A stretch of 64,000 bases of DNA from Comamonadaceae bacterium (GTDB lineage: Bacteria; Pseudomonadota; Gammaproteobacteria; Burkholderiales; Burkholderiaceae_C), in assembly GCA_031421855.1 (NCBI GenBank), contig JANOPN010000198.1, forward strand, positions 2,397 to 66,396, read 5' to 3'. This document shows positions 4,442-63,820 of this stretch, one piece after another. The notes beneath the pieces are model-generated. The model saw only the letters and a list, made by a program, of their open reading frames with translations. It searched no databases and was not told where the DNA came from. The translations under genes and the position numbers were made by a program. How positions within the stretch are numbered: the first letter of the stretch is position 1; the number at the start of each line of letters is the position of its first letter.

Positions 4442-4496
4442 CTACTAAATTTATAGCAACAAACTCAATGAATCCGGTGACCAAGGGGCGATATTA
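4442..4496 (+). repeat. Family-A interspersed repeat, copy 1 (core ATAGCAACAAACTCAATGAATCCGGTGACCAAGG at 4453-4486)
   Basis: Fills almost the entire 64-nt murC-ddl gap. Its core is identical to copy 2. The 3' AAGGGG (4483-4488) lies 8 nt upstream of the ddl ATG. Confidence 0.9.
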
Positions 4497-5477
4497 ATGA
4501 AAAAAGGTGCTTTTCGAACGTTGGCAACCCCAAAATCGATGGGGCGAGTCGCCGTGCTGATGGGCGGACGCTCTGGCGAGCGCGAGGTGTCGCTGATGAG
4601 TGGCCGTGGCGTGCTCGACGCGCTCACGTCAATGGGAGTCGACGCGCATGCGTTCGATCCCGCAACGCAGGCCCTCGGCGAGCTGCAAAGCGAAGGTGTT
4701 CAACGAGCGTTCATCAATTTGCACGGGCGACTGGGCGAAGACGGCTCTATTCAAGGCTGCCTGGAGTGGCTGGGCATCCCGTACACCGGTTCAGGCGTCA
4801 TGGCTTCGGCCATTGCAATGGACAAAGTCATGACCAAACGGCTTTGGATCGCGCAAGGTCTACCCACACCACGCCACGAAGTTTTGAGCAAACAGCATCA
4901 CGCACCCGCGTTTACGCGACTGGTACCGGACCGATTGGGCCTGCCTTTGATCGTCAAGCCACCGCACGAAGGCTCTAGCTTGGGCGTAACCAAGGTGATG
5001 GGCTATAGCCAAATGCAAGAGGCCGTGCGAATCGCTGCAGCCCTAGACCCAGACGTGCTGGTTGAAGAATTCATCGAAGGGCAGGAGGTGACCTGCCCAA
5101 TTTTGGGTGAAGGCGATACCGCCCAAGCCTTGCCAGTGGTGCGGATCGCCGCGCCCGGCGGCAACTACGACTACCAAAACAAATATTTCACCGATACGAC
5201 TGGCTACCACTGCCCCAGCGGTCTACCCGACGGCGAAGATGCTGCGATCCAAGCCCTGGCGCTCAAGTCGTATCAGTCTTTGGGGTGTCGCGGCTGGGGC
5301 CGCGCTGACTTGATGATCCGCGCCAGTGATCGCAAGCCGTTTTTGCTGGAGATGAACACCTCGCCCGGCATGACCAGCCACTCGCTGGTGCCCAAGTCAG
5401 CGTCGGCTGCCGGCCTCAGTTACCCCGATCTTTGTCTGTACATCCTGAGCCTTGCACGGCTCGACACCAACTGCTGA
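4497..5477 (+). CDS. ddl: D-alanine--D-alanine ligase
   Basis: ATP-grasp protein with [19 protein letters not shown] and C-terminal [10 protein letters not shown]. Sits between murC and ftsQ. Confidence 0.93.
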
Positions 5478-5496
5478 TCCATCGCACCTAACCAAC

Positions 5497-6285
5497 ATGA
5501 ACGAGCCCATTCCGACCGACATACGCCTCATGAACGCACTCAGCGCGGCATTCGTGTTCGCGCTCGGTTTGGGTGCGCTCGCTTGGGGGGCGCACACGCT
5601 CGTCACCCACAACCAGTTTGCCGTCAAACGCATCAGTGTCGAGGGCGACTCACAACACAACAGCGCCTTGACCTTGCGCGCAAACGTCGTCCCCAAACTC
5701 AAGGGTAACTTTTTTACAATGGATATGAACGATACGCAGCGCGCGTTCGAGCAAGTGCCATGGGTTCGTCGCGCGGTCGTTAATCGGGACTTCCCCAATC
5801 GGGTTCGGGTTCGCGTGCAAGAGCACACGCCCGTGGCCATGTTCGGTATCGATAGCGAATCGAGAATGGTTAACAGCTACGGCGAGGTTTTTGAAGCCAA
5901 CGCGGCTGAAGTCATCACCGAGTTGCCGCGCTTGGTTGGGCCTGAGGCCCAAGCGGCTTACATGCTGCGAACGCTCAAAACCATTGAGCCCATGTTTGAG
6001 CCACTCGAATTCGCAGTCGATCAACTGGAGTTGTCCACTCGAGGGTCGTGGCGAATCACCTTGGATAACGCCGCCACGATTGACGTGGGCCGAACCGACG
6101 AAGCAGAAATGGTCAGTGTGCTCAAGCGCTTCATTGCTGGCTTGACCCAAGCCACATCCCAACTGGGTCGGAAAGTACAGCACTTGGAGTCGGCAGACCT
6201 GCGCTACCCCAATGGCTTTGCCATCAAGCTGCAGGGTGTGACGACACAGGTCCCAGTCTCCAAAACCAACATCAGAAAAAACTGA
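5497..6285 (+). CDS. ftsQ: Cell division protein FtsQ
   Basis: Short cytoplasmic N-terminus, a single TM (ALSAAFVFALGLGALAWGA), then a POTRA-like FAVKRISVEGDSQ segment. ATG 5497 is the first start after the ddl stop. Position ddl-ftsQ-ftsA. Confidence 0.85.
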   Translation: MNEPIPTDIRLMNALSAAFVFALGLGALAWGAHTLVTHNQFAVKRISVEGDSQHNSALTLRANVVPKLKGNFFTMDMNDTQRAFEQVPWVRRAVVNRDFPNRVRVRVQEHTPVAMFGIDSESRMVNSYGEVFEANAAEVITELPRLVGPEAQAAYMLRTLKTIEPMFEPLEFAVDQLELSTRGSWRITLDNAATIDVGRTDEAEMVSVLKRFIAGLTQATSQLGRKVQHLESADLRYPNGFAIKLQGVTTQVPVSKTNIRKN

Positions 6286-6293
6286 GGCTCCAC

Positions 6294-8943: not shown

Positions 8944-8983
8944 TTGGCCTTGAATTGAGCCCAACCTAAGGTTAGCCCGAAGA

Positions 8984-9025: not shown

Positions 9026-9036
9026 AGAATAGCGGC

Positions 9037-10026
9037 ATGCTTCGCCAACGAACCCTCCGATCCACTGCAAGCGCCACGGGTGTCGGCGTTCACAGCGGCA
9101 GCCGGGTTCAGCTCGTGCTGCGACCGGCTCAGCCCGACACCGGCATCGTGTTTCGACGGGTCGATCTGAGTCCGCCGGTCGACATACCCGTCGATGCAAG
9201 CGCCGTTTCTGACACCCAAATGGCGACGACCGTATCGGCTGGAGGCGCAGTTGTCCGCACCGTCGAGCACATTTTGTCGGCCTGTGCGGGTTTGGGGCTG
9301 GACAACCTCATCATCGACATCGATGCTGAAGAAGTGCCCATACTTGACGGATCGGCCTCGGGATTCGTTTTTTTGCTCAACAGCGCGGGGGTGGTTGACC
9401 AAGCCGCGCCCAAGCAGTTCATTCGCGTGCTGCGCCCTGTCGAAGTGCGAGTGGGTGACGGCGCAAATCTGAAATGGGCTCGACTTGAGCCTTTTGATGG
9501 CTACAAGCTGAGTTTTGAGATTGAATTTGACCACCCAGCGGTGAGCGCGTCGGGTCAGTCTCATGTCTTCGATTTCGCCACAGGCGACTACGCCCGAGAC
9601 ATTTCGCGTGCGCGGACATTTGGCTTCACGGGAGAAGTCGAGTGGCTTCGAAGCAAGGGCCTGGGCCTTGGCGGCGGGCTCGACAACGCAATCGTCATGG
9701 ACGACGTCCGTGTGCTCAACAGTGGTGGCCTGCGTTACGACGACGAATTCGTCAAACACAAAATGTTGGATGCGATAGGCGACATGGCGCTTGCGGGCAA
9801 GCCGCTGCTGGCCTCGTACAGTGCCTACCGAGGCGGACACGCGCTCAATAACCAATTGCTTCGCGCTTTGCTCAGCCAAACCGATGCCTTTGAGACCGTG
9901 CGGTTTGCGCCGCTGTCGGGCCAAGGCGCTGCGGGTCACGGCGCTGCGGGTCACGGCGCGTCGAACCCCGCCGCCTCGTTGGTAAAACGCATCAACCCTC
10001 GGTTTGGATTGGCGAGCCCGGCATGA
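9037..10026 (+). CDS. lpxC: UDP-3-O-acyl-N-acetylglucosamine deacetylase with an extended C-terminal tail
   Basis: [35 protein letters not shown]-terminus and HKMLDAIGD motif. 329 aa, so roughly 20-25 aa longer than typical LpxC as I recall it. Confidence 0.93.
9925..9960 (+). repeat. 15-bp tandem duplication (GGCGCTGCGGGTCAC x2 plus a partial unit) inside the lpxC tail
   Basis: Direct reading of the sequence. Encodes [12 protein letters not shown]. Confidence 0.9.
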
Positions 10027-11792
10027 CCACCACGCAAAAGCTCACTGCCAATCGCACCGCTGAAACGCAGGCCGTTGACGCTCTCAAATTGAAATCGTCG
10101 GACACGCTCAGCATCAGGCCCGGAGATTCTGATCAGGCGAACGCGTTTGCGCTTGCCCAGCGTCAACAAGTCAACCGAGATGCACAAACTGAGCTGGCGA
10201 TCGACAGTGCTTATCGGGCAAAAGAGCAAGAATTGGTCACTGCGCAGTTTGCTGCGCGCAAAAGCGCCCAGGAACGCGACATCCTAACCAAGCAGATCAG
10301 CGCCCAAGAAGCCAACACGAGCCGGTGGCAGCTGCTAAGCGGCGCAGGGGCAGTGGGCACACTCTTGGCGGGCGCACTTTGGCTGCGCACCCGCCGCCAG
10401 TTGCGCGAAGCCCCGATCGCGCCAGATTCTTCCGACACGGGCGATTTGTTTGACACGACCAACTCGGACGACGCGAACACGTTGGCAACCCAATCGGCCC
10501 TGCTTCCCGGCTCAGAATTTGACAGCCACACCGAGCTCGACATCCGCGACGGCCTGTGGAGTGCCGACGAAACGGATGATTTGCCATCGCACGCCACGCT
10601 TCACGAGTTTGATGATGCCGCGCCCTATGCACGAGCAAATCACGGACGCGTGCGCGCGGATGTGCCAGCCAACGATGAACGCTCAGATGCGGCCCACACC
10701 ACATCACCCGGCACGCTGTGGCCGATGACGCAGGCAGCGGGCGAAGATACGGGTAACTCGGATTTTGATGAAATCAATGCGGTTGAAGAAGTCGCTGCGC
10801 AACCTCCTTTGGTGACACCCATCGGCAGCTTACAAACGCCACCGGATCAGTTGTCTGCACAAGCATCACCCCCCGAGATCGCACGGGTAGCCTTGTCGAT
10901 TGACGACGATCGAGCACCCACCGCAACCGCAGCCCCGGCGAAACTCGACCCCACCGCCGATCTGGATACCGCCTCAACCGAGTTGAAGGCGGGCCTGCAA
11001 ACGCCTCCTACCTCACCTTCGCTGCAACCAGTGCCTGCGTCGAAGGACGTCGCGACCTTGACGGACACACCGGCTGTGCCCGAGTGGCTGCAGTCGCCTG
11101 CCACCACAGCAGCGCACGCCACGCCGGAGCCGCAATCCCCGACTCCGATCAAAGACCTGCGGCAAGCATTGTTCAATTCGCTCAAGCGCACGCCGACAAA
11201 ATCTGGCGGTTCAAGCTTCGCCGCCACGGCCATGCCGTCCCACGCTGACATGATGCTCAGCGACGGCTTCAGTTTTCGGGAATTGGCCGATGTGCAATGG
11301 GTTCCGCAGCCGATGCAAGACCTGTTGTTGCTCTACCGCGGGCTGCAAGAGTGGGAAGGCTCGGCTCGATTTGGGGTTGCTGAGCAGGCAATTTTGCATC
11401 ACATCAACCTCCACACCGCAACCAGCGGCTGGGTGTATTTGGAGCTTTTGTACATCTATCGGCGCCTGGATCAACGCAAAGCCTTTGACCAATGGGCCGA
11501 CACGTTCAGAACCCGCTTCAATCGTTTGGCCCCCACATGGACCGATGCGCAAGACATGGGCAAGGAGCTGCTTCGATACGATTTAGCGACCTTGCAACTC
11601 ACACAAGCTTGGGCGAACAACAGCGTCATTTGGTTGCTTGAAGAATGGCTGGTCGGCGAGCCGCACATGCGCCGTTTGATGGACATCAACGCATTTCGCG
11701 ACGTGCTGATGTTGTACGAGCTGTCGCTCATGGTGAACGATAACCCCTACAAACCGATCACACGCCCCAAACGCCCGGCTCAACCGGGTTGA
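10023..11792 (+). CDS. Hypothetical single-pass membrane protein: coiled-coil N-terminus, TM, long acidic/Pro-Thr-Ala-rich linker, ~190-aa globular C-terminal domain
   Basis: ATG 10023 forms an ATGA overlap with the lpxC stop. [22 protein letters not shown] is followed by RTRRQLR. Low-complexity region spans aa ~130-400. No family recognised. Confidence 0.7.
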
Positions 11793-12359: not shown

Positions 12360-12369
12360 AATGAAACCA

Positions 12370-12434
12370 TCATATTCATAGCAACAAACTCAATGAATCC
12401 GGTGACCAAGGGCCAAAAAGTCATAAAAATGACC
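12370..12434 (+). repeat. Family-A interspersed repeat, copy 2 (core 12378-12411)
   Basis: 34-nt core identical to copy 1. Tail is GGCCAAAAAGTCATAAAAATGACC. Fills the gap between ruvC and the CdsA-like gene. Confidence 0.9.
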
Positions 12435-12436
12435 AT

Positions 12437-14100: not shown

Positions 14101-14149
14101 GCCGCAAGCGACAAAGGGCCTGAATGCCGACGATTTAAGTTATCAGAGT

Positions 14150-14212
14150 CAAATTTATTAATATATTGGCTCTTGGTCACCGGATTCATTGACTTCGATG
14201 CTATGAATTTTA
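14150..14212 (-). repeat. Family-A interspersed repeat, copy 3 (core 14172-14204)
   Basis: Reverse complement reads TTCATAGCATCGAAGTCAATGAATCCGGTGACCAAGAGCC. Confidence 0.85.
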
Positions 14213-14224: not shown

Positions 14225-14259
14225 CAAAAAAGCCGCGCACGCTTGACGCGTGCGCGGCT
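14225..14259 (-). terminator. Rho-independent terminator of the hydrolase gene
   Basis: Perfect 12-bp stem AGCCGCGCACGC / GCGTGCGCGGCT with a 5-nt loop. Followed on the minus strand by TTTTTT (14225-14230). Confidence 0.8.
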
Positions 14260-14283: not shown

Positions 14284-15816
14284 TCACGGTGCCGGGCAGG
14301 CGGCCGTGGTTGCCAAAATAATGGGGCGCAGGGCCCGGACAGCACCGCCATCGTCCGCGCCAATGGTGTTGTTGGTGTGGGTGCAACCGTATGACGGCGA
14401 AGCCACGACCGATGCCGTGACCACGTCGTCACCGGCAGGCTTGGCACCGCCGGCTTCCCACTTGATCATGTCGTCAAAGGCTTTGACCTGCTCCGCAATG
14501 GTGAAGTCGCAATGCGTGGCACCGCGAATGGCGCGCTGAACCAAGAACGCGCTGTTGCCTTTGGCCGCAACCCGCTTTTGGTAGACCTGCTGCATGCTGA
14601 ACGGGACAAACAGGTCGCCCAGGGTATGAATGCTGACCACTGGAATCTTCGAGTCGCCATTGACCTTGGGAATCCAACGCAGGCCATCGCGGCGCAGACG
14701 GTTGGCATCAGCTGCAGGTGTCAGCTTTTGCACACTCGCATTCAACGCGGTGGTCCCGGCGGCGTCGCCGTCAATTGTGTACGTCATGGCGGTGGTGTCC
14801 AGAACGTTTTTGTTCAAGATACCCGTGACCGAGCCGTCGCTGCCCCAAGTGCCGTACGCGCTTGGGAAACTGCCGCCAGCGGCCAAGCCCAGCGCAAACA
14901 AGGGTCGTTCGCCGCCGGTGATGTTTTTAAGCACCGAGGCGAATTTTTGGCCGTTTGCCGTCAACCCAACCTGCGCGTTGGGCGTAGCCGCAGACGGGAA
15001 GGTCGTGAACAAGCTTCCATGAACCAGCCCAAAGATCTCGCTGTACTTGGCTGTTGGGTAGCTGGGCACGCCAGCAATCGCCTGCGCAGCGACTTGCATC
15101 GCGGCAAACTGATTGAACAGCTCGGTGTCGCCCATCACACCGCACATGGGCACAGCGCCAGCGTACTTGGTTTTATTGATGGCAGTCGCGGCGGCTTCGT
15201 CGTCAATGGCTGCGCCAGTGACGTGACCACCCATCGAAATCCCGGTGATGAATATCTTGCTGGGTGCGGCCAAGGTGCGGCCGTTTTTGGTTGCAATTGC
15301 AACAAACTCGTTGGCCAAGGCGTTGGTATCTTCAACACCGGCGCGAACGTCGTAGTAGTTTTTGCTGTAGCTCGATGCCGCCCAAGCATAGCCATTGGCC
15401 AGCAGATAGCGGCGAATGGTGGGGTTTTGCACGGCCACGGCCGAGCCATTGCCGGCAAAGCCGTGCGCATACATCACCAAGCGACCATTCCAATTCGGTG
15501 GCACCTCGACTCGGTACGCCGCGCCCTTGAGCACGCCCGCCCAGCGACTGGTCGTGGCTAAGTCAAACGCATCGCCAGCGACTGCGGTCATGGCCGTGAA
15601 GGTGGTCGCAGCGGCATCTGCGGGTGCAAAAGTCCGCGTGTCGTGCTCGCGGGCTTCTTCAGGAACGGGGGCGGGCGGCGGAGGTGGCGGTGCAACAACC
15701 ACCGGCGGGGGCGCAACCGGGGCTGGGGGCGGCGCGTCTGACCCGCCGCCGCAGGCACTGAGCAGTGCAAACATGGCGACAAGAGAGAGTTTGTGCGGGT
15801 TGGTCAACTGTGGCAT
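14284..15816 (-). CDS. Secreted alpha/beta-fold hydrolase lipoprotein with a poly-proline linker
   Basis: Lipobox signal MPQLTNPHKLSLVAMFALLSAC, then the linker PPPAPVAPPPVVVAPPPPPPAPVP. Nucleophile elbow GISMGGH. Start is ATG 15816 (GAGG 9 nt upstream) or 15825. The longer start in the track runs into repeat copy 4. Confidence 0.7.
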   Translation of the reverse strand: MPQLTNPHKLSLVAMFALLSACGGGSDAPPPAPVAPPPVVVAPPPPPPAPVPEEAREHDTRTFAPADAAATTFTAMTAVAGDAFDLATTSRWAGVLKGAAYRVEVPPNWNGRLVMYAHGFAGNGSAVAVQNPTIRRYLLANGYAWAASSYSKNYYDVRAGVEDTNALANEFVAIATKNGRTLAAPSKIFITGISMGGHVTGAAIDDEAAATAINKTKYAGAVPMCGVMGDTELFNQFAAMQVAAQAIAGVPSYPTAKYSEIFGLVHGSLFTTFPSAATPNAQVGLTANGQKFASVLKNITGGERPLFALGLAAGGSFPSAYGTWGSDGSVTGILNKNVLDTTAMTYTIDGDAAGTTALNASVQKLTPAADANRLRRDGLRWIPKVNGDSKIPVVSIHTLGDLFVPFSMQQVYQKRVAAKGNSAFLVQRAIRGATHCDFTIAEQVKAFDDMIKWEAGGAKPAGDDVVTASVVASPSYGCTHTNNTIGADDGGAVRALRPIILATTAACPAP

Positions 15817-15927
15817 ACGGGTCATCCTCGAAGTGGTTGGTTTAGCAACGCATCGTGCCCCCAAGCCCGCGCGCCAAAACATCGGAAAACCCTTTGTTTC
15901 GTCACATCGGTGACGACAAGCACTCAC

Positions 15928-15990
15928 CAATTCATAGCACCAAAATCAATGGAATCGGCGACCAAGGGCCAATAAGTCCGATTTTTTGCG
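15928..15990 (+). repeat. Family-A interspersed repeat, copy 4 (core 15934-15967)
   Basis: TTCATAGCACCAAAATCAATGGAATCGGCGACCAAGGGCCAATAAGTCC. Confidence 0.8.
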
Positions 15991-16010
15991 CCGCCGCGTC
16001 CAAACGCACG

Positions 16011-17184: not shown

Positions 17185-17286
17185 AGGACTTACGCAAAAT
17201 CGTTCCAGCAAGGCGCAGCGACGACGACAGTGCGGATAGCACGGCTAGGAGCTGCAACGCCGCTGGGGCGGTTTTGCGTAAGTCCT
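17185..17286 (+). repeat. 102-nt long-hairpin element (family B), copy A
   Basis: 15-nt terminal inverted repeat AGGACTTACGCAAAA / TTTTGCGTAAGTCCT. About 93% identical to 28117-28218. Begins 2 nt from the ATG of the DegS-like gene. Confidence 0.9.
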
Positions 17287-17374: not shown

Positions 17375-17445
17375 TTGAGCATTTTTTGTGAGTTATTGGC
17401 ACTTGGTCTCCGTATCTATTGACTTTGTTGCTATTATTTTTGAAT
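17375..17445 (-). repeat. Family-A interspersed repeat, copy 5 (core 17402-17434)
   Basis: Reverse complement reads TTCAAAAATAATAGCAACAAAGTCAATAGATACGGAGACCAAGTGCCAATAACTC. Confidence 0.85.
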
Positions 17446-20159: not shown

Positions 20160-20194
20160 ATGCGTTCCTTCGAACTACTTTTTTGGATATCCCC

Positions 20195-20632
20195 ATGAAC
20201 ATCAAATTCATCGCAGCCGTTGCCAGCCTTGGCCTCAGCTTCACCGCGTTTGCGCAAAACACCCCGGTTGGCAAATGGCACTCCATTGACGACAAAACCA
20301 AAGAGGCCAAAGCCGAAATCACCATCGTTGATTCGCCAGCGGGCTTGAGCGGTCGAATCACCAAGCGCTTGAGCAAAGACGCCAAGCCTGACGAGGTCTG
20401 TGACAAATGCACCGACGCGCGCAAAGACAAACCGATTCTCGGCTTGGAGATCATCAACGGCGCAAAAAAGGATCCAGATGAAGCCGTTTGGTACGGCGGC
20501 AAGATTTTGGACCCCGAAAACGGCAAAAACTACAGCTTGAAGCTCACGCCAGTCGACGGCGGCAAAACTTTGGCCGTTCGCGGCTCGATTGGCCCCTTTG
20601 GCCGCACGCAAACCTGGGTTCGCGTGCCCTGA
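20195..20632 (+). CDS. DUF2147-family secreted protein
   Basis: Signal peptide MNIKFIAAVASLGLSFTAFAQ. Characteristic GKW..IDDKT, C.KC, GG.ILDPENGK.Y and VRG..GPFGRTQTW pattern. The upstream part of the track ORF (from 19946) overlaps the ACAD gene. Confidence 0.8.
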   Translation: MNIKFIAAVASLGLSFTAFAQNTPVGKWHSIDDKTKEAKAEITIVDSPAGLSGRITKRLSKDAKPDEVCDKCTDARKDKPILGLEIINGAKKDPDEAVWYGGKILDPENGKNYSLKLTPVDGGKTLAVRGSIGPFGRTQTWVRVP

Positions 20633-24339: not shown

Positions 24340-24344
24340 TCGTT

Positions 24345-24410
24345 TTTTATGAGAAATTAACCATTGGTCACCGGATTCATTGACTTCTATGCTATTTAAT
24401 TAGTAGCAAA
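24345..24410 (-). repeat. Family-A interspersed repeat, copy 6 (core 24362-24395)
   Basis: Reverse complement reads GCTACTAATTAAATAGCATAGAAGTCAATGAATCCGGTGACCAATGG. Confidence 0.85.
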
Positions 24411-25242: not shown

Positions 25243-25254
25243 CCTGAGATAATC

Positions 25255-25320
25255 CCATTTTGATAGCATCAAACCCAATGAATTCGGTGACCAAAGGCTA
25301 AAAATGCATCAAAATGACCT
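25255..25320 (+). repeat. Family-A interspersed repeat, copy 7 (core 25263-25297)
   Basis: GATAGCATCAAACCCAATGAATTCGGTGACCAAAGGCTAAAAATGCATCAAAATGACC. Its tail contains the SD-like AAAGG and the ATG (25304) of the downstream SDR gene. Confidence 0.85.
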
Positions 25321-28116: not shown

Positions 28117-28218
28117 AGGACTTATGCAAAATTGTCCCAGCAAGGCGCAGCGACGACGACAGTGCGAACAGCACGGCTAGGAGCTGCAACGCGGCTGGGG
28201 TGGTTTTGCGTAAGTCCT
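28117..28218 (+). repeat. 102-nt long-hairpin element (family B), copy B
   Basis: Same architecture as 17185-17286. Lies between the convergent ddpX-like and dacB genes. Followed 3 nt later by family-A copy 8. Confidence 0.9.
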
Positions 28219-28220: not shown

Positions 28221-28283
28221 TTAAAATAATAGCAACGAACCCAATAGATCCGGAGACCAAGGGCTGATTTCACTCAAAAAATG
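28221..28283 (+). repeat. Family-A interspersed repeat, copy 8 (core 28229-28262)
   Basis: TTAAAATAATAGCAACGAACCCAATAGATCCGGAGACCAAGGGCTGATTTCACTCAAAAAATG. Ends at the dacB stop codon. Confidence 0.85.
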
Positions 28284-29849: not shown

Positions 29850-30065
29850 CGCTGTCAATCCTGTTGCGCTTACGCCTATCGGGGTAAACATGTGTGAAGA
29901 AATGAACACGTAACATTTCATAATGTAAGTCGTGCCACAAGCGCTGCGCCAATCGCCAAATTGCGACCCACCCGTCCCAATTTGAAGCAAGCGGCAAGGG
30001 AAACCATGAGCCGTTTGGCCCGACCTCCTTTCACATCACCCACTCGACCTCAAGGAAAAGACCAA

Positions 30066-46840: not shown

Positions 46841-46875
46841 GACCAATTTGGGCGCGCTTGCACCCGTTGAAGATG

Positions 46876-46940
46876 TTCAAAAATAGTAGCAACGAACTCA
46901 ATAGATTTCGAGACCAATGGCCAAAAATCCATCAAAAACA
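46876..46940 (+). repeat. Family-A interspersed repeat, copy 10 (core 46886-46920)
   Basis: TTCAAAAATAGTAGCAACGAACTCAATAGATTTCGAGACCAATGGCCAAAAATCCATCAAAAAC. Confidence 0.85.
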
Positions 46941-46944
46941 CGCT

Positions 46945-47196
46945 TCAATGCTCGTGACGCATACCGCAGTGCTTGCCGATGGCCAGCCCTTTGCAGGCGG
47001 TTTGCAACTCAGCCTGACACACATCGTGTTTTTTGCCGCTTTCAAGGCACTTGGCTGCGGCTTCGTGCGCAGCAGCCATGGCGCGGTGGCGGGCGATATC
47101 GGCTTTGGTTTCTTTGTCGCCGTGCGGTGCGGCCCCGGCGGCCAATGCAAGCAGGGCCAAGCTGGTGGCGATGATGAGGGTGCGGGAGAAATTCAT
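46945..47196 (-). CDS. Small secreted Cys/His-rich protein (83 aa), possible metal-binding protein
   Basis: Signal peptide MNFSRTLIIATSLALLALAAGAA. Mature part has 4 Cys, several His and a C-terminal GKHCGMRHEH. No family recognised. Confidence 0.55.
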   Translation of the reverse strand: MNFSRTLIIATSLALLALAAGAAPHGDKETKADIARHRAMAAAHEAAAKCLESGKKHDVCQAELQTACKGLAIGKHCGMRHEH

Positions 47197-47870: not shown

Positions 47871-48629
47871 ATGCCCCGCGACCCTGACCCCGACCTCAAA
47901 CCCGATGCACCCGATGCACCCGATGCACCCGACGAGCCCGCTGTGCCCAGCGCACGCGCCCGGGGACGTCCGCGCAAAACCTTGAGCGAGCGCGACGACG
48001 GCAATCGCCGCATGGGGTTGATTGAGGCAGCAGCCAAATTGTTCCGCCAAAAAGGCTTTGCTGCAACCGCAACCCGAGACATCGCGTCAGCCGTCGGCAT
48101 GCGCAGCGGCAGCCCGTTTTACCACTTCAAAAGCAAAGACGATTTGCTGGCCGCCGTGATGGAACAAGGCATGACAAGGGCCATTGAAAGCCAGCAGTTG
48201 CGACTGAGTTCACTCCTAAATAGTGAGCAACAAACCCAACAGATTCGGAGACCAAGTGCTGATTTCACGTCAAAAGTGCTGCAAATCTTGGTTCGCAACC
48301 ATTTTGAGGTGCTGGTAGGCCCCGGCAGCGACTTCATACCGGTCATGTTGTACGAATGGCGCTCATTGGGCGACGATGCGCGGGCGCGGGTTCAGGCCTT
48401 GCAAACCCAATACGAGGCCGCTTGGCGACCCGTTTTGTCGGTCCTGCACGCCTCGGGGCGGCTGCGCGGGGATGAAAAACTGGCGCGACTGCTCATTTTT
48501 GGCGCCCTGAACTGGACGGCACAGTGGTATCGAATGGGTGATGCAGGCAACCCCGGTGTCGCCACGCTTGACGAGCTTACCGACAGCGCATTGGCCCTGT
48601 TCCTACACGACCTTGCGCCCGCCAAATAG
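47871..48629 (+). CDS. TetR-family transcriptional regulator (AtuR-like position) carrying an in-frame family-A repeat insertion
   Basis: HTH region LIEAAAKLFRQKGFAATATRDIASAVGMRSGSPFYHFKSKDDLL. 252 aa, longer than the usual ~200 aa because of a Pro/Asp-rich N-terminal tail and a ~20-aa insert. Confidence 0.85.
   Translation: MPRDPDPDLKPDAPDAPDAPDEPAVPSARARGRPRKTLSERDDGNRRMGLIEAAAKLFRQKGFAATATRDIASAVGMRSGSPFYHFKSKDDLLAAVMEQGMTRAIESQQLRLSSLLNSEQQTQQIRRPSADFTSKVLQILVRNHFEVLVGPGSDFIPVMLYEWRSLGDDARARVQALQTQYEAAWRPVLSVLHASGRLRGDEKLARLLIFGALNWTAQWYRMGDAGNPGVATLDELTDSALALFLHDLAPAK
47901..47933 (+). repeat. 9-bp tandem repeat CCCGATGCA x3 (plus a partial unit) encoding PDA-PDA-PDA
   Basis: Direct reading. 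Lies in the N-terminal tail of the TetR gene. Confidence 0.9.
48215..48275 (+). repeat. Family-A interspersed repeat, copy 11, inside the TetR CDS (core 48223-48258)
   Basis: AAATAGTGAGCAACAAACCCAACAGATTCGGAGACCAAGTGCTGATTTCACGTCAAAAGTG, translated in frame as NSEQQTQQIRRPSADFTSK. Confidence 0.85.
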
Positions 48630-48653: not shown

Positions 48654-50336
48654 ATGACCGCCAGCTTTCAACCCAGCTTCAACACGTCCAGCCCCACCGC
48701 GCTGGCTCGCGCAACCGCGATGCGCGCCAAGGTCGAGTCGCTCAGGGCGCTAGAGGCCCGCGCGACTTACGAGTCGAGCAAGTCACGCGCGACGTTTGAC
48801 AAGCGCGGCCAGTTGCTGCCGCGTGACCGAGTGGCCTTGCTGATCGATCCGCACACACCGTGGTTGCCACTGATGAGCTTGGTCGGCTACGGGCTTGACG
48901 TGGAAACCAGCAACGACCCTGTCGCCCAGGCCAAGGCCCTGTCGCAGTCGATCCCCGGCGGCGGCATGGTCGCAGGCATTGGATTCATCAGCGGGGTGCG
49001 GTGCATGGTGAGTGCGAGCGACTCCGGCATTGAGGCCGGTGCCATCCAAGCAGGTGGCCTACAAAAAATCCTTCGCGTGCAAGAAATCGCGCTACAAAAC
49101 AAACTGCCATTCATCCATTTGGTTGAAAGCGCAGGGGCCAATTTGCTTCGCTACCGGGTTGATGGCTTTGTGCAAGGCGGCGCACTGTTTCGCAATCTGG
49201 CGCGCTTGTCGGCGGCTGGCATCCCGGTGTTGACGATTCAGCATGGCTCAGGCACAGCAGGCGGCGCGTACATGCCGGGCTTGAGTGACGCGGTGATCAT
49301 GGTCGAGGGGCGATCAAGGGCGTTTTTGGCCGGCCCCCCCTTGCTCAAGGCCGCAACTGGCGAGATTGCAGGAGAGGAAGAGCTGGGCGGCGCATTCATG
49401 CACGCCAGCGTCTCAGGCTTGGGCGAGGCTTTGGTGGCAGACGACCGCGAAGCCATTGGCCTGGCACGTGCCTGGGTGGCTCAATGGGAGCATTTCAAGC
49501 CAAATTTGATGCCAAATATGGCCTTGGTCACCGAATCTATTGAGTTTACTGCTACTAATAGCATAGCAAGTGACGACATGCTCGCGCTGATGCCGTCACA
49601 CTACGCCGAGCCGGTTGACATGCGCGAAGTGATGCATCGGCTGGTTGACTTGCAGCTGTTTGAGTTCAAAGCCCTTTATGGCGCGGCGACCATTTGCGCT
49701 CAAGGCCAGATTGGCGGACACAGCGTGGGCTTCATCAGCAACAACGGCCCAATCGACGTGGCCGGTGCCAACAAGGCCACCCATTTCATCCAGCACATGT
49801 GCCAACTGGGGCACCCCATCATCTACTTGCAAAACACCACCGGCTACATGGTGGGTGTGGCCAGTGAGCAGGCTGGCATGATCAAGCACGGCAGCAAAAT
49901 GATCCAAGCGGTGACGAACGCCAGCGTGCCCCAAATCACCATCCAGTGCGGCGCCAGTTTTGGAGCAGGCAACTACGGCATGTGCGGCCGGGCGTTTGAG
50001 CCCCGTTTTTTGTTCAGCTGGCCCGGCGCACAAACCGCCGTCATGGGCGGTGAGCAAGCGGCTGGCACCATGCGCGAAGTCGTCATGGGCGCGTTTGCCA
50101 AGCGCGGCCTCACCCCAAGCCCCGAGCAAAGCGCGAAATTTGAAGCCCAAGAGCGCGCCATCGTGGCCTTGTTTGCAGCGCAGCAAGATGGGTTTATCAC
50201 CAGCGGCATGGGCTTGGACGACGGCGTGATCGACCCCCGAGACACCCGCGCGACGCTGATCGAATGCTTGGACATGTGCGCCCAGGCCGCCACCCGACAA
50301 CTTCGCCCCACGTCGTTTGGCGTGGCGCGCATGTGA
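48654..50336 (+). CDS. Acyl-CoA carboxylase carboxyltransferase (beta) subunit, methylcrotonyl-/geranyl-CoA carboxylase type, carrying an in-frame family-A repeat insertion
   Basis: Two crotonase-like CT halves: GGMVAGIGFISGV...; NKATHFIQHMCQLGHPIIYLQNTTGYMVG; GASFGAGNYGMCGRAF. 560 aa. Confidence 0.88.
   Translation: MTASFQPSFNTSSPTALARATAMRAKVESLRALEARATYESSKSRATFDKRGQLLPRDRVALLIDPHTPWLPLMSLVGYGLDVETSNDPVAQAKALSQSIPGGGMVAGIGFISGVRCMVSASDSGIEAGAIQAGGLQKILRVQEIALQNKLPFIHLVESAGANLLRYRVDGFVQGGALFRNLARLSAAGIPVLTIQHGSGTAGGAYMPGLSDAVIMVEGRSRAFLAGPPLLKAATGEIAGEEELGGAFMHASVSGLGEALVADDREAIGLARAWVAQWEHFKPNLMPNMALVTESIEFTATNSIASDDMLALMPSHYAEPVDMREVMHRLVDLQLFEFKALYGAATICAQGQIGGHSVGFISNNGPIDVAGANKATHFIQHMCQLGHPIIYLQNTTGYMVGVASEQAGMIKHGSKMIQAVTNASVPQITIQCGASFGAGNYGMCGRAFEPRFLFSWPGAQTAVMGGEQAAGTMREVVMGAFAKRGLTPSPEQSAKFEAQERAIVALFAAQQDGFITSGMGLDDGVIDPRDTRATLIECLDMCAQAATRQLRPTSFGVARM
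49505..49567 (-). repeat. Family-A interspersed repeat, copy 12, inside the carboxyltransferase CDS (core 49522-49556)
   Basis: Plus strand reads GCCTTGGTCACCGAATCTATTGAGTTTACTGCTACTAATAGC, the reverse complement of the family core. Translated in frame as ALVTESIEFTATNS. Confidence 0.85.
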
Positions 50337-54104: not shown

Positions 54105-54127
54105 CGCTTCAAAACGGTATCTCAGAG

Positions 54128-54192
54128 AGATTTTTAGTGGAAAATCAGCACTTGGTCACCGTATTCATTGGGTTAGTTGCTATTATTTTTGA
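54128..54192 (-). repeat. Family-A interspersed repeat, copy 13 (core 54151-54183)
   Basis: Reverse complement reads ATCAAAAATAATAGCAACTAACCCAATGAATACGGTGACCAAGTGCTGATTTTCCACTAAAAATC. Its A-rich 5' flank holds the last codons and the TAA stop (54183-54185) of atuA. Confidence 0.85.
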
Positions 54193-56026: not shown

Positions 56027-57172
56027 CTAGGCCGCGAGTTGCATCAAAAATTCATCGGCGCGGCAAATCTCGATGGTGTCTAGAAAGTGGCTGTTGCGCA
56101 GGTCGCGCAACACGTGGGTCGCGCGTGCATCGGGGAACTGTTGCGCGAATCGCCGCAGAGCTTTGCTGGGCTTGGGGTCGCTGAGCTTGCACTCGATCAA
56201 GTGCGTGAGTGCGCGACCGTTACTGAGCACAAAGTCAACTTCCGCCTCGTCTTTGGTGCGCACGTAGTGCAAACCACTCGATTGACCCAAGACATCTTGC
56301 TCCCAATCAACGTGTTTTAGCAGCGAGGTGGCGACCAAGTTCTCAAACCGCACGCCCTCGTCGCCGTCAACAAGCCCCGTGTCGAAAAAGTAAGCCTTAG
56401 GCATTTGAAGGGTGGCGCGCGCGATGTTTTGACCCCAAGGCCGCACCAAAAAAACGATGTACAGGGCTTCCAAAATCTCCAAATACCGCTTGAGTGTCGT
56501 GGGCGACAACTGCAAGTCGCGGGCAATGCTGGCCAGCGACAAAGGCGAGCCGACTCGCTTGCGCAAGAGCTCAACAAACAAACGAATCGCGCCCAACTCG
56601 TGGACGCGAGAAAACTCCAGCACATCGTTGCGAATCAAACCATCAAAGTACTGCCTGCGCCAACGATCCGCCTGGGCGGCGCTGTCGGCCAAACACGGCT
56701 CAGGAAAGCCGCCGCGCTCCAATAAATGCGTAAGCGCTCGGTCGGGCGTGGCTGCAAGCGCCGTGCCTGAATGTTGCTCACACCACTCGCGCACCGAAAT
56801 GGGGTGCAGCCGCAGCGCAAAAAAACGCCCAGCCAATGACTCACCGCTTTGGCGAAAGGTGTCTAAGCGCGCACTGCCGGTGACCAAAATTTGCTGCCCT
56901 GCTGGTCTGCCGTCCACGACCCCCTTGAGCCAAGCCTTCCAGTCAGGCATTTTGTGGATTTCATCAAACACAACCAGCGGCGCGCGGGCGCTCCAGAGCT
57001 GGTTGACGATCAAGCCACGGTCTGCCGAGACGTCGTAGTTGAGGTATTGCCCGCCTCGCTCGCTCACCAAGTCATGGCTCATGGTGGTTTTACCGACTTG
57101 GCGTGGGCCGACAAGAAAAACCATTTTCTTGGCAAGATCGGCCTTCACGCGGGCGTCTAGGTAGCGTTTCAT
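56027..57172 (-). CDS. AAA-family ATPase with a DUF4143 C-terminal domain
   Basis: Walker A VGPRQVGKTT, Walker B-like LVVFDEIH, and a C-terminal region typical of AAA_14/DUF4143 proteins. Confidence 0.8.
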   Translation of the reverse strand: MKRYLDARVKADLAKKMVFLVGPRQVGKTTMSHDLVSERGGQYLNYDVSADRGLIVNQLWSARAPLVVFDEIHKMPDWKAWLKGVVDGRPAGQQILVTGSARLDTFRQSGESLAGRFFALRLHPISVREWCEQHSGTALAATPDRALTHLLERGGFPEPCLADSAAQADRWRRQYFDGLIRNDVLEFSRVHELGAIRLFVELLRKRVGSPLSLASIARDLQLSPTTLKRYLEILEALYIVFLVRPWGQNIARATLQMPKAYFFDTGLVDGDEGVRFENLVATSLLKHVDWEQDVLGQSSGLHYVRTKDEAEVDFVLSNGRALTHLIECKLSDPKPSKALRRFAQQFPDARATHVLRDLRNSHFLDTIEICRADEFLMQLAA

Positions 57173-57202
57173 GGGGAAATTTTACGACTTTTTGCCATGA
57201 TA

Positions 57203-57230: not shown

Positions 57231-57300
57231 TTCACTGGATAAAAGTCGCATATTGAGGCTCGTGCCACGCTAAACAACGACTGTCAACGACAATCACCGC

Positions 57301-57783
57301 ATGCACAAAAATGACCCCACTGCCGTCGTGTTCGAACCCGAATTCATCGATGGTGTGCGCGACATTTGGCACAACAAAATTGTGTTCAACCGCACCTTGG
57401 GCTTGGAAGTGATCACGATAGAACCCATGCGTGTCACCGCTCAAATCGCAATGCGGCCCGAGTTGGTCGGCCACTACGCTCACAACCGCATCCACGGCGG
57501 CGTCATCAGCGCGGGGCTTGACGCAATGGGCGGCTTGGCGGTGATGGCTGCAATCGGTGCGCGGCACATGGACGAATCGGTCGCCAAGCGATTGGATCGG
57601 TTCAAGTATCTGGGCACGATTGACCTTCGCATCGACTATTTGCGCCCTGGCATCGGTGAGGTGTTCCGCTTGACGGGCGAAGTGCTGCGCTTGGGGTCGC
57701 GGGTGGCCAACACCCGCATGGCGTTTTTGGGCGACGACGGCAAACTGTTGTCGACCGGAAGTGCCGCGTACATCGTGAGCTGA
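57301..57783 (+). CDS. Hot-dog fold thioesterase (PaaI/YigI-like)
   Basis: NRIHGGVISAGLDAMGGLAV core motif; 160 aa. Confidence 0.78.
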   Translation: MHKNDPTAVVFEPEFIDGVRDIWHNKIVFNRTLGLEVITIEPMRVTAQIAMRPELVGHYAHNRIHGGVISAGLDAMGGLAVMAAIGARHMDESVAKRLDRFKYLGTIDLRIDYLRPGIGEVFRLTGEVLRLGSRVANTRMAFLGDDGKLLSTGSAAYIVS

Positions 57784-57790
57784 ATTCGCC

Positions 57791-59020
57791 TCACGCATGG
57801 ATCGGCATTCGGGCATGCGCCAGTGTCTGTGTGAGCACGTCGCGCTGGGCGTGGCTTCCGCCAAAGGCTGCGGCTTGCTCAATGACGGGCTCAAGCAAGG
57901 CAACCACAGCCGCAAAATCTCGCTTGGCAAACGCTCGCACGCTCAAACACGCGGCGTGCCCGATTTGACTCAAAAAGTGCTGGTTGTCGTGGCTTGGGTC
58001 GGCCAAAGCGGCTCGCTGTGCTGACAACAGTGCCTCAGCATGCGCATCGCGACCGGTCATGGCGAACGCCATCATCGCGTGAAGATCATTGAACGCATAG
58101 CTGCTGATGGTGGCGTGGCGCTCCCAGGCTTTGGCAAGCGGCTCCCACCGAGAGTCGACATCGACGGCGCGAAGGTGCAGCCGCCACAGCATTGAGCTGG
58201 CATCAAGCAAATTGAGGGCAAGGGACTCGTCAGCAGGTGCCAATTGATCGTCGTATCGGGCTAAAACCTCGTCAATGCGGCCGTTCGCCAGATGAAACAA
58301 CGCCCAGTGCCAATGGTTGTGCACCCGAAAGAAGCTGTCGTCGTGCCACTGGGTTGACTGCGCGAACCACTGCTCACCGTCACGCGGGCGACGCTGCATC
58401 TCCATCACATGCGCAACCGCGTGCCAGGCCCAGCCGTCGCGCGGCTCCAACGCCGCAGCGCGCCTGCCCAAGGCCTCGGCTTGTGCGTAGTCGCCGTTTT
58501 CCTCGCAACCAAAAGCATGCATGGCCAAAACGCCGTGGAAGCCTCGCATGTCAGCATCCCACGCCGGCACGGCCTGTTTGATGCGATCCAGCAGCCGGCC
58601 TGGGTTACCGGTGAAGAAGTCAATCTGGTGCCCCACTTGCAAGGCCAGTGCATCAAGCGGTGACGCGAGGTTGATGGCCAATACGCTGTCGCTTGCCTTG
58701 AACCAGTGTCCGCTGGCTAACTCATGCGCAGCGCGCCAGTGCGACTGCTCGCCGCACGACAAACGCAAACCATGGGCTACATCGAGCAGCTTGTGCGCCT
58801 GGGCTGACGCATGGGGCTCTGTGCCCAACAAATGCAACCACGCCATGAGCACATGCGGCATGCCCCAGTGTGGATCGAGCGCGGCGGCCTCAAGCGCACT
58901 GGCCATGGGGTCGCCGCCGTAACGCAGCAGCTGCGCGCAGGCTGAGTCAAAACTGGCTTGTGCGGCAGAGTTCAAATCAGTAACTGACGCGATGCGCGTG
59001 TACGCAGGCAATGGCTTCAT
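57791..59020 (-). CDS. TPR-like protein of the TTC38 family
   Basis: N-terminal A..F..A...LL.YGGDP....ALEAAALDP.. pattern and all-helical repeats. ATG 59020 overlaps the upstream gene's 3' end by 44 nt, so the start is uncertain. Confidence 0.6.
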   Translation of the reverse strand: MKPLPAYTRIASVTDLNSAAQASFDSACAQLLRYGGDPMASALEAAALDPHWGMPHVLMAWLHLLGTEPHASAQAHKLLDVAHGLRLSCGEQSHWRAAHELASGHWFKASDSVLAINLASPLDALALQVGHQIDFFTGNPGRLLDRIKQAVPAWDADMRGFHGVLAMHAFGCEENGDYAQAEALGRRAAALEPRDGWAWHAVAHVMEMQRRPRDGEQWFAQSTQWHDDSFFRVHNHWHWALFHLANGRIDEVLARYDDQLAPADESLALNLLDASSMLWRLHLRAVDVDSRWEPLAKAWERHATISSYAFNDLHAMMAFAMTGRDAHAEALLSAQRAALADPSHDNQHFLSQIGHAACLSVRAFAKRDFAAVVALLEPVIEQAAAFGGSHAQRDVLTQTLAHARMPIHA

Positions 59021-61163: not shown

Positions 61164-61179
61164 GATTTGATTTGACTGA

Positions 61180-61255
61180 AAATACTATTATTTATGTAGC
61201 AACAAAGTGAATAGATATCGAGACCAAGTGCCAAAAACACCCAATATTTCACTCA
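61180..61255 (+). repeat. Family-A interspersed repeat, copy 14 (core 61196-61230)
   Basis: TATTTATGTAGCAACAAAGTGAATAGATATCGAGACCAAGTGCCAAAAACACCC. Confidence 0.8.
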
Positions 61256-61276
61256 TTTGCCCGTTTTTGGCTCTTT

Positions 61277-62482: not shown

Positions 62483-62521
62483 GGCGTTTTTCCTGTGTGT
62501 GTGTCAAAAAAGAGTATATTC

Positions 62522-62550
62522 TTTTTGCCAAGCAAGCGCTTTGTAAAAAT
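62522..62550. promoter_or_regulatory. Second copy of the candidate TetR operator (TTTTTGCCAAGCAAGCGCTTTGTAAAAAT)
   Basis: Shares CCAAGCAAGCGCTT plus A/T flanks with 47818-47847. Lies in the 83-bp divergent thiolase/ACAD gap. Confidence 0.5.
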
Positions 62551-62565
62551 ACCCGGAAAGTCCAC

Positions 62566-63747
62566 ATGCCTGCCAGTCAATTGATCCCCCGCACCCTGTT
62601 TGACGCCGACCACGAGGCGTTTCGAGACAGCTTTCGCCGATTCATGAACATTGAAATTGCCCCACACCATGCGCAATGGGAGGAGCAAGGCTTCGTTGAT
62701 CGCGGCGTCTGGGACAAAGCAGGAGCAAACGGCTACCTTTGCATGGGGCTACCCGAGCGATTCGGTGGCTGCGGCGCGGACAAGCGCTTCTCCATCATTC
62801 AGATGGAAGAACTCGCCACCGGCGGATTCACGGGCATTGGCTACGGGCTGCACAGCGAAATCGTCGCGCCATACATCGCCCATTACGGCACGCCTGAGCA
62901 GCAAGCCCATTATTTGCCCGCCATGGCGAGTGGCACGACCATCGGGGCAATCGCCATGAGCGAGCCCGCAGCGGGCAGCGACTTGCAAGGCATCAAAACC
63001 ACCGCCATCGACCAAGGCGACCACTATGTGATCAATGGCAGCAAAACCTTCATCACCAACGGCTGGCACGCGGACTTGGTCATCGTCGTGGCCAAAACCA
63101 ACCCCCAGGCAGGTGCGAAGGGGACAAGCCTATTCTTAGTTGAGCGGGGCATGCCGGGGTTTGAAAAAGGCCAACGACTCAAAAAGCTTGGCCTCAAAGC
63201 GCAAGACACCAGCGAGCTGTTTTTCAACAACGTGCGCGTACCCAAAAGCCATTTGCTCGGAGGCGAGACCCAGCTCAACCGAGGCTTCATCTGCTTGATG
63301 GAGCAACTGCCGTGGGAGCGCCTGCAAATTGCAGTCACCGCAGTCGCGGCCGCCCAAGCTGCCATCGACTGGACGGTTGCCTATGTCAAAGAGCGGCAGG
63401 TCTTTGGCCAACCGGTCGCCAGCTTTCAGCACACCCGCTACCAACTCGCTGAGCTACAAACCCAAGTTCAAGTCGCCCGGGTATTTGTCGACCGCTGCAC
63501 CGAACTCGTCTTAAAAGACGAACTCGACACCAGCACCGCCAGCATGGCCAAGCTGTGGACGACCGACTTGCAATGCCAAGTCATGGATGCCTGCGTTCAA
63601 CTCTTTGGCGGCTATGGTTTCATGTGGGAGTACCCCATCACACGAGCCTACGCCGACGCCCGCGTGCAGCGCATTTACGGCGGCACCAACGAGATCATGA
63701 AAGAAGTGATCGCGCGCGGCATGGGTTTGAGCTCGGGTGGGCGTTGA
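62566..63747 (+). CDS. Acyl-CoA dehydrogenase
   Basis: GAIAMSEPAAGSDLQGI, FITNG, and the C-terminal FGGYGFMWEYPITRAYADARVQRIYGGTNEIM. ATG 62566 is the first ATG clear of the divergent thiolase. Confidence 0.9.
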   Translation: MPASQLIPRTLFDADHEAFRDSFRRFMNIEIAPHHAQWEEQGFVDRGVWDKAGANGYLCMGLPERFGGCGADKRFSIIQMEELATGGFTGIGYGLHSEIVAPYIAHYGTPEQQAHYLPAMASGTTIGAIAMSEPAAGSDLQGIKTTAIDQGDHYVINGSKTFITNGWHADLVIVVAKTNPQAGAKGTSLFLVERGMPGFEKGQRLKKLGLKAQDTSELFFNNVRVPKSHLLGGETQLNRGFICLMEQLPWERLQIAVTAVAAAQAAIDWTVAYVKERQVFGQPVASFQHTRYQLAELQTQVQVARVFVDRCTELVLKDELDTSTASMAKLWTTDLQCQVMDACVQLFGGYGFMWEYPITRAYADARVQRIYGGTNEIMKEVIARGMGLSSGGR

Positions 63748-63754
63748 ATGAGTC

Positions 63755-63820
63755 CTAAAGATATAGCAACAGATTCAATGAATCCGTTGACCAAGTGCCG
63801 AAAAGTCATTATTTTTTGTC
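63755..63820 (+). repeat. Family-A interspersed repeat, copy 15 (core 63763-63796)
   Basis: AAGATATAGCAACAGATTCAATGAATCCGTTGACCAAGTGCCGAAAAGTCATTATTTTTT. Confidence 0.85.

Follow-up and report, generated by a model that had tools for sequence, protein, structure and literature searches.

An ancient family of dispersed repeats of about 75 nt that evolves in concert in a Comamonadaceae genome

Results

The repeat family and its gene context

The stretch of DNA analysed here comprises 64,000 nt of a Comamonadaceae bacterium (assembly GCA_031421855.1, contig JANOPN010000198.1) and is called the window in the following; it contains 15 copies of a dispersed repeat of about 75 nt, which is the subject of this study. 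According to a map of open reading frames (ORFs) and Pfam domains, the window carries the dcw cluster (ftsW, murG, murC, ddl, ftsQAZ, lpxC), ruvC together with genes for lipid synthesis, htrA, two clusters for fatty-acid oxidation, genes for peptidoglycan recycling and the atu cluster for geranyl-CoA carboxylase. Protein searches placed it in the broad Burkholderiaceae, near lineages of the Hydrogenophaga, Rhodoferax and Ramlibacter type, with no close named relative. The map contains 22 intergenic gaps of at least 50 nt with a total length of ~3.3 kb. An earlier note on this sequence had estimated that 13 of about 23 gaps carry a copy, and we found 13 of the 22 to be occupied; in seven gaps of 60–80 nt, the element represents essentially the entire spacer.

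Scanning the window with a 32-nt core (TAGCAACAAACTCAATGAATCCGGTGACCAAG) yielded 15 copies with 0–8 mismatches, and the next best sequences, with 12 mismatches, were chance matches in ftsZ and other genes. An nhmmer profile built from the copy alignment detected the same 15 copies with E-values between 3e-18 and 7e-14, and no other match in the window fell below E = 1, in agreement with the number, positions and strands of the copies listed in the earlier note. The repeat unit spans ~70–80 nt with a conserved part of at least 45–78 nt, and it is AT-rich in a window of 57–61% G+C. Its density is 15 copies per 64 kb, equivalent to ~0.23 per kb or ~1 per 4 kb; ten copies are on the plus and five on the minus strand, which is not a significant bias. 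The copies do not represent a CRISPR array, being irregularly spaced at 910 to 14310 nt on both strands with housekeeping genes in between. Two variants of the 3' tail, CCAAAAA..CAT and CTGATTTCAC, had been described before and are both real in the copy alignment. Weak partial matches (E = 3–7) to the 3' half of the repeat (GACCAAGTG...CTCAACAAAATTG) lie at 30060–30090, in the upstream gap of a gene for a TonB-dependent receptor, and at 57171–57197, at the start of an AAA_14 gene; they may be either decayed copies or chance matches.

The core scan and nhmmer located the intergenic copies, supplemented by Pfam for copy 13. The copies occur sense and antisense to the flanking or host genes as well as in convergent and divergent gaps, as had been claimed before. 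Four of them are in sense orientation, namely copies 1, 3, 7 and the intragenic copy 11. Copy 1 (4441–4512, plus strand; nhmmer E = 4e-17, no mismatch in the core) fills the gap between murC and ddl and overlaps the annotated ddl start with its 3' end; copy 3 (14143–14212, minus strand) lies between an acyltransferase gene and a 548-aa ORF, directly downstream of a strong terminator hairpin (14231–14259), and copy 7 (25252–25323, plus strand) fills the gap between the thioesterase and SDR genes, where an ATG in its tail serves as the start of the longest SDR ORF. Because the longest-ORF starts of both ddl (4497–4540) and the SDR gene (25304–25330) fall into the 3' tails of copies 1 and 7, gene-start calls beside copies need care, and the true start of ddl may be the ATG at 4541 (MGRVAVL...).

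Six copies are in antisense orientation, namely copies 2, 4, 6, 10 and 14 and the intragenic copy 12. Copy 2 (12369–12436, plus strand) fills the gap between ruvC and a cdsA-like gene, antisense to both; copy 4 (15924–15992, plus strand), which has the most diverged intergenic core, lies between the 548-aa ORF and htrA; copy 6 (24335–24407, minus strand) fills the gap between the thiolase and thioesterase genes and contains a 5' stem of 5 bp (TGCTA/TAGCA); copy 10 (46875–46945, plus strand) lies upstream of an astE-like gene, and copy 14 (61184–61256, plus strand) between a fadB-like and a thiolase gene. Convergent gaps contain copy 8 (28221–28285, plus strand; between genes for M15 and S13 peptidases), copy 9 (34022–34094, plus strand; filling the gap between ldcA and a beta-lactamase-like gene) and copy 13 (54122–54191, minus strand; filling the gap between a histidine phosphatase gene and atuA). 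Copy 9 exhibits the best 5' stem-loop of the window, with 7 bp (GCTACTA/TAGTAGC). The only divergent gap with a copy, between htrA and tetR, contains copy 5 (17377–17444, minus strand), and copy 15 (63752–63824, plus strand) lies 5 nt past the stop codon of an acyl-CoA dehydrogenase gene.

Searching ~50 ORFs of the window against Pfam revealed no transposase, RAYT or integrase domains, consistent with the earlier note, and no gene for a RAYT, the transposase associated with repetitive extragenic palindromic (REP) sequences, was present either in the window or in ~150 kb of relatives' loci as annotated.

Related genomes and orthologous loci

The nearest sequenced genome is a metagenome-assembled genome (GCA_965187865.1, loci L001 and L003; called Rel1 in the following), whose AtuC and Ddl proteins share 80% and 74% identity with those of the window. 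Our comparison covers the 64-kb window and 42.6 kb of Rel1; the latter contains seven copies. The profiles derived from either genome detected the copies of the other, down to E = 1.5e-6. The search in related genomes proposed by the earlier note thus showed the family to be present in related uncultured Burkholderiaceae, namely Rel1 and others. Alignments of the flanks established four orthologous pairs: copy 1 corresponds to R3 of Rel1 in the murC–ddl gap, copy 2 to R2 in the gap between ruvC and the cdsA-like gene, copy 11 to R6 inside tetR, and copy 12 to R7 inside atuC. A fifth pair, in murE, is apparent at the protein level only (see below).

Fourfold degenerate sites are only 35–53% identical between the window and Rel1, which corresponds to saturation, and a neutral relic of 75 nt would therefore have been erased and would no longer be recognisable. 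The family is ancient, and at least four of the insertions predate the split from the nearest sequenced relatives. Traces of the atuC insert can also be followed into GCA_965190865.1 and, faintly, into a metagenome lineage of 65% GC. In the L005 lineage, the copy in atuC can hardly be recognised, and a stretch of 21.6 kb yielded no further one. A comparison with an empty site at the astE-like junction was not clean, as the neighbouring genes differ.

Scanning metagenomes with a 20-mer from the 5' part of the element gave four matches, three of which were chance matches in contigs of 31–33% GC. The remaining one is a real single copy at positions 1630–1687 of JGI contig Ga0208398_106326 (L012; 56% GC), which contains a 5' stem of 9 bp and is identical to the window type in its 5' half and different in its 3' half (ATGAGGGCTATAGGCTGATTTTT), indicating that the family reaches further environmental lineages. 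The exact 20-mer TCAATGAATCCGGTGACCAA had no match in species-representative genomes, metagenomes or viral contigs, and no match was found in plasmids by blastn in distant mode. Two of the Rel1 copies, R4 and R5, face each other head-to-head in a convergent gap of 377 nt, and a 13-nt tandem repeat of ~6 units (CGCGTTCGGTCTG) lies between them (L001, 7811–7888).

Copies inserted in frame within genes

The two copies inside coding sequences that the earlier note had reported are both in frame and free of stop codons. Copy 11 (48212–48286, plus strand), as determined from Pfam, nhmmer and alignments, is located in a TetR gene (47871–48629) between the TetR_N and TetR_C domains and encodes the peptide SSLLNSEQQTQQIRRPSADFTSKVLQI. 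Copy 12 (49495–49566, minus strand) is located antisense in the gene for geranyl-CoA carboxylase beta (atuC, 48654–50336), where it encodes KPNLMPNMALVTESIEFTATNSIAS in an inter-domain linker. Alignments to solved homologues and relatives revealed extra residues at both sites; for TetR, 9–12 extra residues occur exactly at the element compared with homologues without it. The 5' part of the TetR ORF also contains a 9-nt tandem repeat (ATGCACCCG, ~4 units, 47896–47944), which encodes PDAPDAPDAP and is absent from relatives.

A further case is MurE of Rel1, which contains ~31 extra residues including a copy (L003, 816–890, in frame) between the motifs WWLSQAL and IGTLG, whereas MurE homologues from Ramlibacter and others lack this insert. 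It is common to four lineages, represented by Rel1, GCA_013298415.1, GCA_975325825.1, where the copy is GC-rich and decayed, and P0242, a MurE of 545 aa encoded on a 4.6-kb contig. The insert of P0242 encodes the version of the repeat that is typical for the window genome, hereafter its dialect (IRRP = ATTCGGAGACCA), and that of Rel1 encodes the Rel1 dialect. Because its peptide bears the window dialect, P0242 probably represents the MurE of the window genome. In-frame insertions in coding genes include those in TetR and AtuC in the window and those in MurE, TetR and AtuC in Rel1. Because the extra residues are found exactly where the element lies, the elements arrived as insertions.

Concerted evolution within genomes

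Over 45 nt, the mean identity is 0.73 among the window copies and 0.66 among the Rel1 copies, compared to 0.58 between the genomes. The four orthologous pairs, at 0.56–0.62 identity, are no closer to each other than unrelated pairs. At six diagnostic positions, which were defined on non-orthologous copies only, the window orthologues match the window consensus in 24 of 24 cases and the Rel1 orthologues match the Rel1 consensus in 18 of 24. A third dialect is present in GCA_965190865.1 and a fourth in the JGI contig. Because copies at the same place follow their own genome's version, the family is not only old but has also been kept alike within each genome.

Further evidence comes from the distribution of variants among the copies. 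A 34-nt core is identical letter for letter in copies 1 and 2, as had been noticed before, and was not matched in any of 100 shuffles; because both copies reside at ancient loci, this points to a recent transfer between old loci. Four variant characters occur in all four combinations in all six pairs, and a tail differing at several bases (CTGATTT; copies 8, 11 and 13) is joined to both core types, resulting in a mosaic as expected from an exchange between copies. We conclude that the copies evolve in concert within each genome.

Anatomy and constraint of the element

From 5' to 3', the element consists of a small stem-loop (arms GCTAy and rTAGC, ~7 nt apart) that has largely eroded in the window genome, an invariant block (AGCAACAAA), the dialect segment of ~20 nt, which is genome-specific yet common within a genome and ends with GACCAA in the window, and a block KGCCRAWWW, followed by a second A-tract ~11 nt further. 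The corresponding architecture in Rel1 is TTGCTAy-N7-rTAGCAACAAA-NNN-TTTAAAyhCGCTGGCTAAsTGCCrAwAA.

The earlier note had described the element as devoid of a long stem, which holds for most window copies but not for copies 6, 9, 11 and 12: these retain a 5' stem of at least 5 bp (5–7 bp), the 3' arm of which is the TAGCA motif. On average, the 5' stem in the window amounts to 3.1 bp versus 2.6 bp in shuffles, 47 out of 500 of which were as good. In Rel1, a 5' stem-loop of 4–7 bp is present in all seven copies, with a mean of 5.1 bp versus 2.5 ± 0.4 bp in shuffles (0 of 500 as good) and with compensatory variants (GCTATA/TATAGC, TGCTACA/TGTAGCA, TTGCT/AGCAA). The stem-loop is therefore a part of the family and has decayed in the window genome. 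The motif pair GTAG/CTAC was found in two window copies (9 and 12) and three Rel1 copies (R2, R3 and R7), but within the stem, and most window copies have ATAG or TTAG.

The differences between the copies are not spread evenly over the core. If the 63 differences were placed at random, 3.7 ± 1.5 of the 32 core columns should be invariant, whereas 14 are (P < 1e-4), and the longest invariant run is 6 nt (GACCAA) versus 1.3 nt expected (P < 1e-4). The invariant blocks AGCA and GACCAA are ~24 nt apart.

Discussion

Proposed origin and maintenance

We tentatively explain these findings by an ancient family of non-autonomous DNA insertions whose copies are kept alike by copy-to-copy conversion and by constraint on blocks, which would point to a recognising protein; we rate this explanation as plausible, although slightly short of an even chance. 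The elements would have inserted into gene junctions and a few tolerant coding spots before the split from the nearest relatives, and repeated transfer of sequence between copies, by gene conversion or re-homing into existing copies, would have kept them alike in each genome. Constraint on the two blocks (AGCA... and GACCAA) may act as a second force that keeps the copies recognisable. These blocks, and the stem-loop in the relatives, may be the target of a sequence-specific protein whose gene lies elsewhere in the genome; candidates would be a nucleoid protein with drifting specificity and a transposase or nuclease that has been domesticated. The earlier note had proposed that the repeat is a site bound by a protein or a non-autonomous element spread by an enzyme acting in trans; both roles survive, and our data suggest that they are not mutually exclusive.

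Several observations weigh against this explanation. A mobilising or binding protein for the family was not found, and none is encoded in the window; neither flank duplications nor clean empty sites were observed. The net extra length in AtuC and TetR is below the length of the element, implying that host sequence was deleted or overwritten after the insertion, which makes simple transposition inadequate. Conversion of the RecA type should be inefficient between 70-nt copies that are only ~73% alike, and site-by-site selection towards a drifting protein specificity could generate dialects without any conversion. The comparison is based on seven copies of one relative and four orthologous pairs at the DNA level, with the murE pair added at the protein level by an inferred assignment.

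Alternative explanations

The most serious alternative, which we regard as possible but on the whole doubtful, is that the copies, whatever gave rise to them, are now bound by an abundant DNA-binding protein of the host with a role in organising the nucleoid, in domain boundaries or in insulating gene junctions. Selection would then keep each site, and the dialects would track changes in the specificity of the protein without gene conversion. This would account for the two invariant blocks at a distance of ~24 nt, for A-tracts whose phasing suggests bent DNA, and for an orientation independent of transcription; it also agrees with the retention of copies at orthologous loci across saturated divergence and with the stem-loop arms of the relatives, which form a palindrome of the kind bound by dimers. 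However, a binding site would require neither a 34-nt core that is the same in copies 1 and 2 nor the tail shared by copies 8, 11 and 13; both point to transfer, and selective retention inside murE, atuC and tetR is hard to explain. Moreover, the sites are dispensable, because the murE copy has decayed in GCA_975325825.1 and the atuC copy has nearly gone in the L005 lineage.

An unlikely further possibility is that the copies are actively rewritten in place: a lineage-specific machinery encoded elsewhere would repeatedly overwrite old copies, also those lying in essential genes like murE, with whatever version is the current master. This machinery might be a nuclease, an HUH enzyme or a system templated by reverse transcriptase or single-stranded DNA. 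If true, this would represent a bacterial system of targeted homogenisation of dispersed sequences that creates genome-wide dialects, rather than the passive decay of selfish DNA.

By analogy with known uptake systems, the repeat might also be, or contain, a recognition sequence for DNA uptake in natural transformation, with biased uptake and recombination spreading a preferred version, although we consider this quite improbable. Dialects at orthologous positions, the occurrence in both orientations and the copies inside genes would fit, and the succession of a GC-richer core and two A-tracts ~11 nt apart recalls the extended uptake signal sequence (USS) of Haemophilus. On the other hand, the conserved unit spans 60–80 nt instead of 9–12 nt, the density of ~0.23 per kb falls far short of roughly 1 per kb for DNA uptake sequences (DUS) and USS, and the intragenic copies add residues and have thus not been built by point mutation.

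Even less probable is a recent burst of a miniature inverted-repeat transposable element (MITE) derived from an insertion sequence (IS), with the likeness of the copies reflecting their young age. The subfamily structure and high copy density would agree with such a burst, and a true MITE with inverted ends and flank duplications is present in the same window (D4, see below). In 22 copies, however, the mean length of the longest inverted match shared by the ends is 5.8 nt versus 5.0 ± 0.9 nt in shuffles, in line with the lack of terminal inverted repeats described in the earlier note, and the check for target-site duplications it had called for gave a longest direct match in the flanks of 5.5 nt on average versus 5.1 ± 1.0 nt in shuffles. 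Flank duplications may have decayed because the copies are old. At least four copies predate a split with saturated synonymous sites, which contradicts a young burst for the orthologous copies, and conservation in the family is blockwise and not uniform.

A cis-regulatory RNA or multicopy small RNA gene is hardly credible and already largely refuted: although several copies fall within 5' or 3' untranslated regions and compensatory changes are seen in the small stem-loop of the relatives, the orientation is mixed, RNAalifold found zero consensus pairs in the window copies, Rfam gave no match at the copies even at E ≤ 1 (one unrelated weak match lies elsewhere in the window), and promoter-like sites are not enriched (6 versus 5.0 ± 2.1 expected, two of them overlapping copies 3 and 5). 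Likewise, the window contains no tRNA or Rfam family at gathering score, and terminator-like sites are no commoner than in shuffles. Because of the mixed orientation, the missing conserved fold and the negative Rfam search, we conclude that any function of the family is exerted by the DNA rather than by an RNA.

Other assignments were considered and rejected. Visual inspection of both strands for promoter layouts (-35/-10, sigma-54, sigma-28 and sigma-E) revealed none that suits all copies; a small peptide is not indicated either, as open frames are not conserved among the copies. A tRNA-like 3' end, integron attC sites, dif/Xer sites, template and variable repeats of diversity-generating retroelements and ends of the IS200/IS605 type were dropped on sequence grounds, because a T-arm partner, R''/R' boxes, a second hairpin and adenine-specific variation are absent.

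Comparison with known repeat systems

A search among described repeats, as recommended earlier, identified no matching family in Rfam or the searchable literature, the latter providing general reviews only. The previous statement that the element fits no known class stands for MITE, ERIC, Correia and CRISPR elements. Its contrast with REP-type elements turned out to be weaker than claimed, because the relatives keep a conserved 5' stem-loop. The family resembles REP sequences and Rickettsia palindromic elements (RPE) in behaviour and is a member of neither; it does not have the structure that characterises REP, RPE, MITE, ERIC or Correia elements.

Like REP sequences, their composite BIME forms and the associated RAYT system of gamma- and betaproteobacteria, the family is short, abundant, mostly extragenic, present in both orientations, genome-specific in consensus and vertically persistent, and it may depend on a factor encoded elsewhere; some copies of the window and Rel1 contain a stem-loop with GTAG/CTAC. 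Gene conversion is said to have been proposed by Higgins and colleagues in 1988 as the process keeping REPs alike. However, REPs are GC-rich imperfect palindromes of 20–40 nt next to an unpaired GTAG head, frequently arranged in inverted pairs, whereas the stem observed here is AT-rich, comprises only 4–7 bp, is lost in most window copies and is followed by ~50 nt of conserved non-palindromic sequence. A REP-type hairpin palindrome of 20–40 nt was found neither in the window, where the copies have no consensus pairs, nor in the relatives, which contain only the short stem-loop, and we observed neither inverted pairs nor a RAYT gene.

In-frame insertions of RPE were reportedly described by Ogata and colleagues in 2000, and the family shares with them both this property and ancient insertions common to relatives. 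RPE are known from Rickettsia only, measure ~100–150 bp, are palindromic and are reported to decay after insertion without being homogenised, whereas the repeats studied here measure 70–80 nt, are non-palindromic, reside in a Burkholderiaceae host and evolve in concert in each genome. In general, RPE are small repeats that have entered unrelated housekeeping genes in frame and also occur in intergenic regions; they are ancient and common to related species (PMC10969869). From the same source, MITEs are small, non-coding, multicopy and mostly intergenic, and they can sit in operons without breaking them and can form in-frame fusions (PMC10969869). The family is similar to MITEs such as Correia/NEMIS, ERIC/IRU, Chunjie and Nezha in being small, non-coding, multicopy and mostly intergenic, but the defining features of such elements, terminal inverted repeats and target-site duplications, were not found here; ERIC is a 127-bp palindrome, and Correia elements have inverted repeats of 26 bp and a TA duplication.

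Uptake sequences, according to what Redfield and colleagues (2006) and Frye and colleagues (2013) are said to have reported, form lineage dialects and have phased AT-rich flanks after the core. The family shares with the DUS of Neisseriaceae and the USS of Pasteurellaceae the lineage dialects at orthologous positions (24/24 and 18/24), both orientations, genic copies and AT-rich phased flanks, but theirs are cores of 9–12 nt that arise by point mutation at ~1 per kb, as opposed to inserted units of 70–80 nt at ~1 per 4 kb.

Small dispersed repeats are usually regarded as selfish DNA in decay or as hairpins of the REP type on which RAYTs act. Here, a largely hairpin-free family occupies most gene junctions, is inserted in frame within essential or housekeeping genes and is persistent yet genome-specific, which offers a natural test of how short dispersed sequences stay alike, whether by gene conversion, re-homing or co-evolution with a binding protein. 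It also shows that peptides derived from repeats can persist for a long time in enzymes, MurE among them. In practical terms, such repeats break metagenome assemblies and can mislead the calling of gene starts, as seen with ddl and the SDR gene.

Other features of the window

A second, unrelated repeat of ~102 nt, D4, occurs twice in the window, at 17185–17286 (D4a) and 28117–28218 (D4b), with the two copies being 93% alike. It has perfect terminal inverted repeats of 15 nt (AGGACTTAyGCAAAA / TTTTGCGTAAGTCCT), folds as one long hairpin (-33.9 kcal/mol as DNA, z = -7.2) and is apparently flanked by 5-nt duplications (ATTAA and TTCAT). Because of the inverted ends and flank duplications, D4 is a classical MITE; it is absent from the relatives' loci examined. 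D4b has inserted into the AT-rich 5' part of copy 8, which is broken by it, and D4a lies 90 nt from copy 5.

Between an acyl-CoA dehydrogenase and a fadB-like gene, 429 nt (20160–20588) contain neither a copy nor a Pfam-supported ORF, so that either the start of the fadB-like gene is mis-set or an unannotated feature is present. Long ORFs without a Pfam match lie at 10023–11792, 14284–15930, 38877–40226 and 57232–59020 (589, 548, 449, 232 and 409 aa); the first of these sizes belongs to the ORF that follows lpxC, which corresponds to one of 554 aa in the same place in Rel1. Finally, the GC skew is negative nearly throughout the window (cumulative -0.48), suggesting that the plus strand is probably the lagging strand.

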